From contig JBDRKH010000016.1 of the NCBI GenBank assembly GCA_043814195.1, positions 1 through 28,953 on the forward strand: 28,953 nt of DNA, read 5' to 3'. Made by a program: the position numbers and the translations under genes. How positions within the stretch are numbered: position 1 is the first letter of the stretch; each line of letters begins with the position of its first letter. The notes below the pieces were generated by a model. That model made no database searches and was not told the DNA's origin. It saw only the letters and a program-made list of their open reading frames with translations. Positions 1 to 20,334 of the stretch are shown here, one piece after another. The stretch comes from Patescibacteria group bacterium. GTDB lineage: Bacteria; Patescibacteriota; Minisyncoccia; Portnoybacterales; UBA2143.

Positions 1-915
1 GGCGAGGATGGGTTTCGGGCTCGTCAGAAATTAAATCAAATTATTCAGGAATATCAAGCCAAACATCAGACCGGACTTAATCTGGCTCGTTTTGGCGAGA
101 AGAATTTGGAGTTCGACAAATTTAGGGAAAAAATTGAGGCAGTTTCTATGTTTGATGAGAAAAAATTAATTATTTTAGAAAATATTTTTAATCAGAAAGA
201 TTTTTTGGAGCAATTTAGCAAATATCTTAAAAAGAATAAACTAAAAGATAATCAGGAGATTATTATTGTCATTCATCAAGCAGGTAAATTGCCAAAACCA
301 GCTTTTAAGCGCCAGGTAAATATGTTTGAGGAATTCCAGCTATTGCAGGGAGTAAAATTGGTTGATTGGTTGAAAAAGGAAGTTAGTAAAAATAAAGGAG
401 AAATTAGTCCGGGAGCAATTAACAAATTAATTATTTATGTAGGCAATGATTTATGGCAATTATTCAATGAACTTAATAAATTGATTAGTTTTAAGGCTGG
501 CCAGATCATTGAGGAAAAAGACGTTGATTTGCTGGTCAAGGCCAGAATAGATGTTAATATTTTTAAAACTCTGGATGCTTTGGCCCAAAGAGATAAAAAA
601 ACTGCCTTTAAATTGATTCACCAGCACTTGGAACAAGGCGAGAACGAAATCTATTTGCTTTCTATGCTGGCTTATCAGGTTCGCACTTTGATTAAATTAA
701 AAGACTTAGTGGAAAAAGGCACGCCTTATTACAATTTAGCCAGAAAAGCCGGGCTTCATCCTTTTGTGGTAAAAAAAAGCTCCCAGCAATTAAGGAACTT
801 TACTTTGGAGCAGTTAAAAAAGATTTACCGATATTTATTAGAAATTGATTGGAAAATAAAAGTCGGGCGATTGGATGGTCAGACTGCTTTGGATTTATTA
901 GTAGGGGAGATTTAA
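1..915 (+). CDS. holA: DNA polymerase III delta subunit, 5'-truncated by the window edge
   Basis: Frame 1 is open from base 1 (GEDGFRARQKL, typical HolA N-terminus). The C-terminal motifs VGNDLWQLFNELNKL, IFKTLDAL and LHPFVVKK are present. TAA at 913-915. Confidence 0.9.
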   Translation, partial: GEDGFRARQKLNQIIQEYQAKHQTGLNLARFGEKNLEFDKFREKIEAVSMFDEKKLIILENIFNQKDFLEQFSKYLKKNKLKDNQEIIIVIHQAGKLPKPAFKRQVNMFEEFQLLQGVKLVDWLKKEVSKNKGEISPGAINKLIIYVGNDLWQLFNELNKLISFKAGQIIEEKDVDLLVKARIDVNIFKTLDALAQRDKKTAFKLIHQHLEQGENEIYLLSMLAYQVRTLIKLKDLVEKGTPYYNLARKAGLHPFVVKKSSQQLRNFTLEQLKKIYRYLLEIDWKIKVGRLDGQTALDLLVGEI

Positions 916-1018
916 AGGTACGACCTTAAAATGTACGTCCTTTCCAACTAAAATCTATGATAGTTGGAAAGTTTAAGAGTATCGTGAGGCAAGGACGTAT
1001 ATTTTAAGGTCGTACCTT
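913..1018. repeat. 106-bp palindromic element, copy 1 (MITE/REP-like)
   Basis: 30-bp terminal inverted repeat 913-942 / 991-1020 (29/30 match) and an inner perfect 10-bp inverted repeat 941-950 / 961-970. Confidence 0.9.
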
Positions 1019-1357
1019 TACTTTTTCTACAATCTTAGCGAAAACTTCCGGTTGTTTTTCAGCCAGACGAGCCAGGATTTTGCGGTCAATTTCAATTTTG
1101 GCTTTTTTCAATCCATTAATAAACCGGCTGTAAGTTATTCCGTGTTCACGGCTGGCCGCATTAATTTTAATCTGCCAGAGACGGCGAATTACCCGCTTTT
1201 TAGTTCTGCGGTCTCGGTAGGCATAAACAAGGGCGTGTCTGACTGCGTCTTTAGCTAAGCGGTATTTAGATTTGCGTCCCCACTTAAATCCTTTAGCCTG
1301 TTTAATTATTTTTTTTCGGCGCTTATGAGCCATAACGCCGCGTTTAACTCTGGTCAT
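1004..1357 (-). CDS. rplT: 50S ribosomal protein L20
   Basis: MTRVKRGV...[12 protein letters not shown]...[39 protein letters not shown]. Confidence 0.98.
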
Positions 1358-1363
1358 AAGAGA

Positions 1364-1469
1364 TAAAGGTACGACCTTAAAATGTACGTCCTTTCCAACT
1401 AAGATTTATGGTAGTTGGAAATTCTAAAAGCATCGTGAGGCAAGGACGTATATTTTAAGGTCGTACCTT
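1364..1469. repeat. 106-bp palindromic element, copy 2
   Basis: 99/106 identical to 913-1018 in the same orientation; all 7 differences are in unpaired segments. Confidence 0.9.
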
Positions 1470-1665
1470 AGATGTTAGGTAGGATTTTTTTAATTCTTTT
1501 AAAATTAGCTGGCGAGACCATGATTGATTTTCTTTTTTTTCTGGTCTGCTGGCCTGAATCTTTGGCATTAAAGTGCCCCTGATGGACTTTTCTTCTTAGA
1601 ATTTTATGGCGGCCAGTAATCTTTAATCTTTTTAATAAAGCTTTTCTAGTTTTAAGTTTAGTCAT
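1468..1665 (-). CDS. rpmI: 50S ribosomal protein L35
   Basis: MTKLKTRKALLKRLKITGRHKILRRK...HFNAK; 65 aa, basic; lies between infC and rplT. Confidence 0.95.
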   Translation of the reverse strand: MTKLKTRKALLKRLKITGRHKILRRKVHQGHFNAKDSGQQTRKKRKSIMVSPANFKRIKKILPNI

Positions 1666-2224: not shown

Positions 2225-2569
2225 TGGTGGAGACGGGGAGAGTCGAACTCCCGTCTGAAAGTTATTCTTTAATAATTCTACAAGTTTAGCCTGGTTTAAT
2301 TTAGAGAAGAAAGAACTAAAAGCCAGGCAAAACATTCTTAATTCTCGTCTCAAAATTTTTAATAATTAGCCAGAGACAAATCTAATTATCTATCCTAATA
2401 AGATGACACCCGCGCTTTCTATTAGGAATCAAAAGTTTGGATGGCTGCTGACTTTAAGCAACAGCAAAAGCTAAATTTTTGTTAGCAGTTATTTCGTTTG
2501 CAAGATTAACGAGATTGCGCTCGACTTGCTTATTAAAGAAACAAACTTCCATCAATGCCTGTCATCCCC
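2225..2569 (-). ncRNA. ssrA: tmRNA (345 nt), tag peptide ANKNLAFAVA*
   Basis: 5' GGGGAUG pairs with 3' CGUCUCC-ACCA including a G3-U pair; T-arm GGGAG-UUCGACU-CUCCC; TTCTTTAATAA pairs with TTATTAAAGAA; AUAACU-GCU resume context with tag ORF at 2486-2454; adjacent to smpB. Confidence 0.95.
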
Positions 2570-13699: not shown

Positions 13700-13710
13700 A
13701 AATTCTAATT

Positions 13711-13755
13711 AAGGTCGTACCTTATCTAAATCGTCCTTGCCAAAAAGGACGATTT
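13711..13755. repeat. Shortened derivative of the 106-bp element
   Basis: AAGGTCGTACCTT core at 13711-13723 plus an 11-bp hairpin aaatcgtcctt-gccaaa-aaggacgattt; shares cgtccttgcc with the reverse complement of the full element. Confidence 0.7.
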
Positions 13756-13766
13756 TTAGCTACAAT
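13737..13766 (+). promoter_or_regulatory. sigma70-type promoter of rsmI
   Basis: TTGCCA-18 nt-TACAAT, 6 nt before the ATG at 13773. Confidence 0.55.
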
Positions 13767-15898: not shown

Positions 15899-16756
15899 AT
15901 GTCTAAACCGTTATTAATTGACACTCACGCTCATGCTAATTTCAATGTCTACCAGGATGATGGCGACCAAATAATTAAGCGCGCTCTGGATGAAAATATC
16001 TGGCTGATTAATATTGGCGCCCAATACAGCACTAGCCAACGGGCAGTTGAGTACGCAAAAAAATACAAAGAAGGGGTCTATGCAGTGGTTGGTTTGCATC
16101 CGATTCATGTAAATAAAGGCGGGTTTGAAAAAGAATGGGATGGCGCGGTTTCAGAAAGAGAGTTTGAGGAATTTGATTCAGAGAAATATAAGAAATTATT
16201 AGAAAATCCCAAAGTAGTGGCTATGGGCGAAATCGGCTTGGACTATTTTGAGGGAATCACTGAAAAACAAAAAGAAAAGCAAAAACAAGTTTTTATGGAA
16301 CAACTGGATTTAGCCCGACAAATGGATAAGCCGATTGTTTTTCATTGCCGCAAAGCTTACCATGATTTAATTGAACTTTTGAAAATGTTTAATTTGGGCT
16401 GCGCCGGCTGTCCGATGGGCGGGGGGTGCGCCCCAAAATTAAAAGGCGCGCTCCATTGTTTCATGGGGCGTTGGTCTCAAGCGGAAAAGTTTTTGGAAAT
16501 GGATTTTTATTTCGGCTTTAACGGGTTAATCACTTATGCCCGGGATTATGACAAGGTAATAAAAAACCTTCCCCTGGAAAAGATATTACTAGAAACCGAT
16601 TGCCCTTATTTAACTCCTGAACCTCATCGGGATAAAAGAAACGAGCCTTTATACGTCAAATACGTGGCCGAAAAAATCGCGGAAATTAAAGGAATAAAGT
16701 TTGAACAAGTGGTTGAACAAACAACCAAAAACGCTAAAGAATTATTTAATATTTAG
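15899..16756 (+). CDS. tatD: TatD family DNase/hydrolase
   Basis: IDTHAH, GLHP, GEIGLDY, FHCR, LHCF, LLETDCPYLTP...RNEP. Confidence 0.95.
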   Translation: MSKPLLIDTHAHANFNVYQDDGDQIIKRALDENIWLINIGAQYSTSQRAVEYAKKYKEGVYAVVGLHPIHVNKGGFEKEWDGAVSEREFEEFDSEKYKKLLENPKVVAMGEIGLDYFEGITEKQKEKQKQVFMEQLDLARQMDKPIVFHCRKAYHDLIELLKMFNLGCAGCPMGGGCAPKLKGALHCFMGRWSQAEKFLEMDFYFGFNGLITYARDYDKVIKNLPLEKILLETDCPYLTPEPHRDKRNEPLYVKYVAEKIAEIKGIKFEQVVEQTTKNAKELFNI

Positions 16757-20248: not shown

Positions 20249-20334
20249 GGTGCCGAAGGTGGGAGTCGAACCCACAAGGGCGTGAGCCCACAGCATTTTG
20301 AGTGCTGCGTGTTTCCCAATTTCACCACTTCGGC
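20249..20334 (-). tRNA. tRNA-Leu(CAA), 86 nt, CCA encoded
   Basis: GCCGAAG/CTTCGGC-ACCA acceptor stem; anticodon arm CAGCA-CTCAAAA-TGCTG; long variable arm; T-loop TTCGACT. Confidence 0.96.

Follow-up and report, generated by a model that had tools for sequence, protein, structure and literature searches.

A palindromic repeat, probably of REP/REPIN type, supplies the KVRP ends of two unrelated proteins in a Patescibacteria genome

Within the stretch of DNA that was analysed (the window; 28,953 nucleotides of contig JBDRKH010000016.1 from a Patescibacteria group bacterium), the genes for ribosomal protein L20 and for an LCP protein end in the same four residues, which raises the question of how two unrelated proteins came to share a C-terminus. 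Direct reading of the minus strand gave AAG GTA CGA CCT TAA, that is K-V-R-P-stop, at both 1004-1018 and 28384-28398, in agreement with the original prediction, and the identity of the two sites was found to reach the predicted 17 nt (1004-1020 = 28384-28400). A census of ORFs of at least 60 aa over the entire genome (n = 1558) found two ending in KVRP, namely L20 and LCP. This genome (G000) comprises 472 kb in 69 contigs with 39% GC and is 94.6% complete; TAA is the main stop codon of its long ORFs (236 of 375). The genes and their shared ends are as follows.

1004..1357, minus strand: rplT (L20), 117 aa; Pfam Ribosomal_L20, E 1.8e-39, profile spanning residues 3-109
28384..28953, minus strand: 3' part of the LCP gene; LytR_cpsA_psr, E 4.6e-19; ends QEYINLKVRP; the 5' end lies beyond the contig
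1004..1018, minus strand: core copy at the rplT end, K-V-R-P-TAA; outer hairpin, right arm of element copy A
28384..28398, minus strand: solo core at the LCP end, last four LCP codons and stop; pth start codon 8 nt further on

The shared core is a repeat. Six copies of the 15-mer AAGGTACGACCTTAA lie in the window (915+, 1004-, 1366+, 1455-, 13709- and 28384-), against 0.02 expected from shuffles, none of 100 of which reached six, and the 13-mer AAGGTACGACCTT was found in nine copies in the 472-kb genome against approximately 0.013 expected. Four of the six window cores form the outer ends of two larger elements, copies A and B, which bracket rplT, and the other two are solo.

913..1020, no strand assigned: element copy A, a nested palindrome between the convergent holA and rplT genes; 33-nt arms, 94% complementary
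1364..1471, no strand assigned: element copy B, 92% identical to copy A, occupying the rpmI-rplT spacer
915..929, plus strand: core at the left end of copy A, its first base overlapped by the holA stop TAA (913-915)
1366..1380, plus strand: core at the left end of copy B, ending 9 nt before the rplT start codon
1455..1469, minus strand: core at the right end of copy B, its first two bases overlapped by the rpmI stop TAA (1468-1470)
13709..13723, minus strand: solo core, 10 nt past the stop of an AI-2E transporter gene

Copies A and B have predicted folds of -48 to -59 kcal/mol (z approximately -10), the values for copy A being -50 kcal/mol when the minus strand is folded and -58.7 kcal/mol for the plus strand, and the L20 stop sits within the 37-bp stem of the element. 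The inner stem (ACGTCCTT...AAGGACGT) contains CGTC. For a solo core the predicted fold is not more stable than those of shuffled sequences (z -0.67). The solo core at 13709-13723 is followed by a hairpin CGTCCTT...AAGGACG with a T-run (approximately 13728-13756), which looks terminator-like. An Rfam scan of the window gave no family matching the element, only tmRNA and one tRNA being above the thresholds, and a promoter and terminator scan gave nothing specific, with no terminator-like site within the elements at 913-1471. The tmRNA gene (2225-2569, minus strand, 152 bits) lies approximately 135 nt upstream of the infC-rpmI-rplT cluster, which is also on the minus strand, and the tRNA gene is located at 20251-20334 (minus strand).

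In a search of 41 genomes the exact 13-mer was present in this genome alone (0 of 40 relatives), while a search allowing two mismatches found several relatives, with recorded names of Candidatus Portnoybacteria, Parcubacteria group or Patescibacteria group, to be strongly enriched for variants of it. The repeat unit has the general form AAGG-N-ACG-N'-CCTT, a 5-bp stem with an ACG loop (13 nt). The generalised motif AAGGNACGNCCTT was found with the following copy numbers, its reversed-pattern control giving 0-2 copies in the five relatives listed.

G004: 40 copies, main variant AAGGAACGTCCTT
G001: 29 copies, main variant AAGGGACGCCCTT
G011: 24 copies, main variant AAGGAACGTCCTT
This genome: 16 copies, namely AAGGTACGACCTT (9), AAGGTACGGCCTT (6) and AAGGCACGGCCTT (1)
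G017: 5 copies, main variant AAGGCACGGCCTT
G014: 1 copy, AAGGCACGGCCTT

Enriched genomes thus hold 5-40 units each, and the others none or one. The AAGG/CCTT arms and ACG loop are constant and the fifth stem pair differs by genome, being T-A, A-T, G-C or C-G; the exceptions to stem pairing are a T-G variant in this genome and, in G001, a few single copies with a mispair. This compensated change of the closing pair suggests that the hairpin itself is recognised. Most copies form inverted doublets, the two units being 46-49 nt apart and sharing an inner hairpin, with two such doublets found in the window, 18 in G004 and 10 in G011, and the string AAAATATACGTCCTT is common to a G011 doublet and the element here.

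A second subfamily was also detected in this genome, in which AAGGTACGGCCTT, whose copies carry the T-G fifth stem pair, is joined to TCGAATG (C4:9611, C27:2338, C41:131 and C44:3670). In these four cases the unit is followed by a second hairpin (CGCCCTTTGC...). The member at C32:2237 has the unit AAGGCACGGCCTT in place of AAGGTACGGCCTT, and three motif copies are clustered there within approximately 100 nt (C32:2146-2249). Another variant of the unit, AAGGTCGCGCCTTAA, supplies the KVAP end of a 293-aa ORF elsewhere on this contig. Other abundant repeats of the genome are heptamer arrays of GTTTCAAG type, with 12-mers in up to 38 copies, AAAACCTGAAACAT with approximately 24 copies, and CTCGCAATGACA with 18 copies, the last of which resembles CGTC/TGTC-tagged REPs.

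The end of L20 was compared with that of its orthologues. The form found in 16 of the 28 genomes of relatives and among 24 of 25 orthologues on metagenome contigs (40 of 53) is an L20 of 114 aa ending in EK[VI][KR]; here L20 has 117 aa, three residues more. None of the 53 ends in VRP, so that the tail is specific to this lineage, as the original prediction had suggested an alignment might reveal. In several metagenome relatives the L20 stop abuts the complement of the holA stop (TAA|TTA AAT CTC); here the right flank TTA AAT CTC CCC is retained beyond the element, and L20 has lost its native stop. The relatives' junction, together with the same flank without a native stop, suggests that L20 gained V-R-P and borrows the TAA lying past the hairpin, the element site here coinciding with the stop junction elsewhere. 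The proposal that the element captures a gene end and replaces its native stop is thus supported for L20. The further claim, that the whole tail is appended, holds for V-R-P and the stop and probably not for K, the codon of which would be native given that the L20 of relatives ends in K.

Approximately 4 nt, including the L20 stop, were probably lost or replaced at the L20/holA junction, judging from this comparison. Clean cut-and-paste with target duplication was rejected for this site, as excision with duplication of TA, TAA or TAAA leaves neither an L20 nor a holA stop. A search of metagenomes through holA gave no empty site from a near-identical genome, the best holA relative being 73% identical, and insertion, target and mobility are for this reason deduced across genera. 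In G014 (L022) and on metagenome contig L241, where L20 is also 117 aa, its end reads K[ED]VS on AAGGA[CG]GTGTCTTAA, and the stops of L20 and holA overlap in TTAA. This end may represent a decayed, collapsed solo copy at the same site as here, a resemblance which is suggestive only.

At the LCP-pth junction a repeat-coded tail was found in six of 29 LCP orthologues (KVRP twice, KERP, EERP and KDSP twice), two of which still have the complete doublet. A tree of LCP built with the tail columns left out showed the tailed orthologues to be scattered (6 changes, the mean after shuffling being 5.6), and its well-supported branches force at least three tail changes. This scatter suggests that the LCP-pth junction has been occupied repeatedly. 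The G014 orthologue also ends in KVRP, an ending that would speak against the original prediction where orthologues lack the DNA palindrome; a recognisable palindrome remnant is still present there, namely the decayed motif copy AAGGTGCGTCCTTAA, with two synonymous changes. Retention of KVRP through these changes could hint at weak constraint at the protein level (approximately 7% by chance, by our own estimate).

The association of the unit with stop codons was then considered for all 16 motif copies of the genome. A same-strand gene stop was found at offset -2, -1 or +12 in six of them, against 0.8-1.4% for random placement, with a binomial tail of approximately 6e-8 for copies which are not fully independent. 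The enrichment at stop codons on which the original prediction depended is therefore present. Fourteen of the 16 copies are placed at a gene end or between two. The C66 hit is inside an ORF with no ORF stop nearby, and the hit on C57, inside an ORF and within a KsgA-like IVANLPYY region, was set aside as it looks like ordinary coding sequence. Four genes here have no tail, TAA being kept just before the unit (holA, rpmI and two other genes), and the C-terminus of L35 (rpmI) at copy B is native (IKKILPNI). Tails in the K-x-x-P frame were also identified in relatives, namely KERP three times in G011, once on a sigma factor, KGRP in G001, KAVP in G017 and KDVP in G004. G004 also has QGRSLK three times from another frame. 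At approximately 16441-16499 of G004:C7 (L121), two convergent ORFs of 218 aa and 97 aa, the latter possibly spurious, both end in QGRSLK within the arms of one doublet.

A candidate for the mobilising enzyme was found in the relatives. Genes matching Pfam Y1_Tnp over the cut-off were detected in 18 of 31 genomes, with one to four matches per genome; the motif-rich G004, G001, G011, G017 and G000 each have one, and none was found in G014, which has a single motif copy. Palindromes of the AAGG-N-ACG-N'-CCTT design flank the Y1_Tnp genes of G011, G004 and G002, and that of G017 on the upstream side only (short contig), with the flanks in G011 being the dispersed AAGGAACGTCCTT unit itself. Other genome-specific palindromes flank those of G003, G016 and G009. 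The encoded RAYT-like proteins are approximately 190-230 aa long, HUH and the tyrosine (YIHxNP) are invariant in the alignment, and the 3' ends of the transposase genes are themselves repeat-encoded (KDVP in G011, KDCP and RDCP). The closest solved structure is the E. coli TnpA-REP (4ER8) with an E-value of 3e-6, against 1e-3 for ISDra2 TnpA (IS200/IS605); this match needed a profile of 10 sequences, phmmer of one RAYT-like protein against PDB giving no hit. The NCBIfam RAYT model gave 79.4 bits, just below its cut-off of 80, and the IS200 model 18 bits.

The only RAYT-like gene of this genome (C10:16479-17012) has an apparent frameshift in an A-rich run past the catalytic tyrosine, with its WSSY motif continuing in another frame. 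It is bracketed (C10:16342-17054) by a different, 27-nt palindrome, CATGTTAGACATC[C/G]GATGTCTAACATG, which is not dispersed, the genome holding just the two flanking copies. When a lost group-A RAYT was looked for by synteny, through the neighbours rfbA and a sigma factor, no tblastn hit was obtained in this genome. As no gene flanked by AAGGTACGACCTT, and thus no cognate transposase, was seen in it, the copies here may be relics, or may be mobilised in trans.

These features are best compared with the REP, BIME and REPIN sequences and their RAYT transposases in E. coli, Pseudomonas and Stenotrophomonas. In both cases short palindromes are repeated over the genome, mostly at the 3' ends of genes and often as inverted doublets forming a long hairpin, and the elements of the relatives flank a low-copy HUH/Y1 gene whose best solved relative is the E. 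coli TnpA-REP. The family differs in that GTAG, the canonical tag, is absent at unit ends and CGTC occurs only in the inner stem and in the units of relatives, so the end tag may be a different one in this lineage. The unit here is also AT-richer and much shorter (13 nt, with a 5-bp stem and a 3-nt loop), the host has a Patescibacteria genome of approximately 0.5 Mb with copies in tens rather than hundreds, the 3' end of the relatives' transposase gene is repeat-encoded, and this genome is without a visible cognate flanked RAYT. The missing GTAG, the low copy number here (9 + 6 + 1) and the lack of an enzyme tied to AAGGTACGACCTT in this genome count against assignment to REP/REPIN.

RPEs of Rickettsia as a rule encode 30-50 aa inserted in frame in the interior of a protein, and the Correia elements of Neisseria are TA-duplicating MITEs of about 100-150 bp. 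Both resemble the present family as selfish palindromes tolerated in or at the ends of housekeeping genes, where they add residues or stops; they differ from it in the internal position of the RPE inserts and the TA duplication of Correia elements, and the likeness drawn here is one of description. A closer precedent is the survey of Di Nocera et al. (2013; PMC3733652), in which flanking ORFs often take their stop codon from REP termini, REPs between convergent genes are no more than 20 bp from either 3' end, and slightly more than 10% of intragenic REPs are at ORF ends. The same work describes CGTC-tagged repeats without an associated transposase, including RPE-4 and RPE-6 of Rickettsia. The present family shares with these the CGTC of the inner stem and of the G004/G011 13-mer AAGGAACGTCCTT, head-to-head dimers, small genomes and a location partly within coding regions. 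It differs in that its palindromes flank RAYT-like genes in relatives, in stem and loop dimensions (their stems being 8-9 bp), and in that the 13-mer of this genome reads CGAC, not CGTC. No paper linking REP or RAYT to Patescibacteria was found in the literature searched.

It is considered probable that the core is the unit of a REP/REPIN-type palindromic family of Portnoybacteria-like Patescibacteria and that the KVRP tail is a tolerated by-product of it, not a selected signal. Two inverted units with an inner hairpin would make up the doublet, REPIN-like element, and the RAYT-like HUH/Y1 transposase presumably mobilises the elements flanking it as single-stranded hairpins. Copies would then settle at or on TAA stops in the very short intergenic spaces, where the effect on the upstream gene would be set by the reading frame in which the unit is met. 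In one frame the gene would keep its TAA directly before the unit, as for holA, rpmI and the two others. In the other, AAG GNN NNN CCT would be read up to the following TAA or TAG to give a K-x-x-P tail, as for L20 and LCP.

Several other readings were weighed against this one. A chance match between the two gene ends has nothing in its favour except the short length of the match and can be dismissed on the counts, given six exact 15-mers against 0.02 expected, no shuffle with six, and enrichment of the family in several genomes relative to the reversed-pattern controls. It is very improbable that KVRP, or K-x-x-P in general, is a selected C-terminal peptide signal common to the tagged proteins. 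Such a signal would account for the same tail on two proteins here, for the x-x-x-P ends of the six LCP orthologues and for the KVRP kept by the G014 LCP despite the synonymous decay of its palindrome. However, the two middle residues track the repeat variant of each genome (VR, ER, GR, AV, DV and DS), proteins as unrelated as the transposase and a sigma factor carry the tails, a different frame yields QGRSLK, and at other copies the gene stops ahead of the unit and has no tail. L20 is also without the tail in its 53 other orthologues, except that one lineage may retain a K[ED]VS remnant. A tail which follows the hairpin variant, occurs on unrelated proteins and is absent where the frame meets an upstream TAA is explained as a by-product of a repeat at gene ends, and of the two outcomes which the original prediction had left side by side, shared signal or by-product, the latter is accordingly favoured and the former disfavoured.

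The remaining readings concern the element and not the tail. That it is a MITE of a DDE transposon in the style of IS630/Tc1-mariner, whose preference for TA or TAA would account for the landing on stop codons, is unlikely. Its long terminal inverted repeats (33 nt, 94% complementary), the TA directly 5' of AAGG in 10 of the 16 copies and the TA at both flanks of copy A would fit such an origin, but copy B has a clean TA at one side only, copies in G004 and G011 are without a TA flank, no DDE_3, DDE_Tnp_1 or TnpB-type genes were found in this 94.6%-complete genome, and the same architecture in relatives flanks Y1/HUH genes rather than DDE genes. A slightly better, still low, probability is given to the hairpins being RNA elements selected by the host, such as stabilisers of mRNA 3' ends, sites of processing, or control elements for termination or L20 expression, with the overlap of coding sequence being incidental. 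The very stable folds, the stem pair compensated across genera and the bracketing of rplT by two copies are consistent with such a role. REPs at most 15 nt from a stop are also said to lower translation in E. coli, as Liang, Rudd and Deutscher reportedly found in 2015. Unrelated palindromic inserts of 137, 84 and 324 nt are located in the rpmI-rplT spacer of G006, G004 and G009, respectively, which belong to three other genera, and hairpin repeats seem to be tolerated in, or attracted to, this spacer. Against an RNA role, the spacer is 110 nt here and at most 17 nt in 18 of the 26 relatives measured, the sequence of the element is genome-specific, it occurs in both orientations relative to transcription, and the solo core does not fold better than shuffles. 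Neither the Rfam scan, which also gave no match to an autoregulatory RNA of L20-leader type, nor the terminator scan recognised the element.

The REP/REPIN-type by-product reading allows for side effects on the host, and slower termination at Pro-stop and the burial of the stop codon in the 37-bp stem are possible consequences; context for such consequences is given by 2002 work as discussed in PMC7246954. A more far-reaching version, offered as speculation with little probability attached to it, is that RAYT-linked hairpins target TAA-rich junctions such as L20|holA and LCP|pth and that the host exploits K-x-x-Pro-stop and stem-buried stops to tune termination or the tmRNA-dependent turnover of housekeeping proteins such as L20.

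That repeats supply stop codons is already published behaviour, and the new details here are the lineage concerned, a unit of very short length and a transposase terminus encoded by the repeat. The finding means that genomes of approximately 0.5 Mb with almost no intergenic space still carry repeats of REP/RAYT type, and that in such genomes these persist only by sitting on stops and rewriting the last residues of essential proteins. For annotation of this lineage, recurrent K-x-x-P endings should be read as footprints of DNA repeats and not as peptide motifs. The compensated stem pair, the repeat-encoded transposase ends and the reoccupied LCP-pth junction together make this family a tractable case for the study of how such repeats choose their targets.
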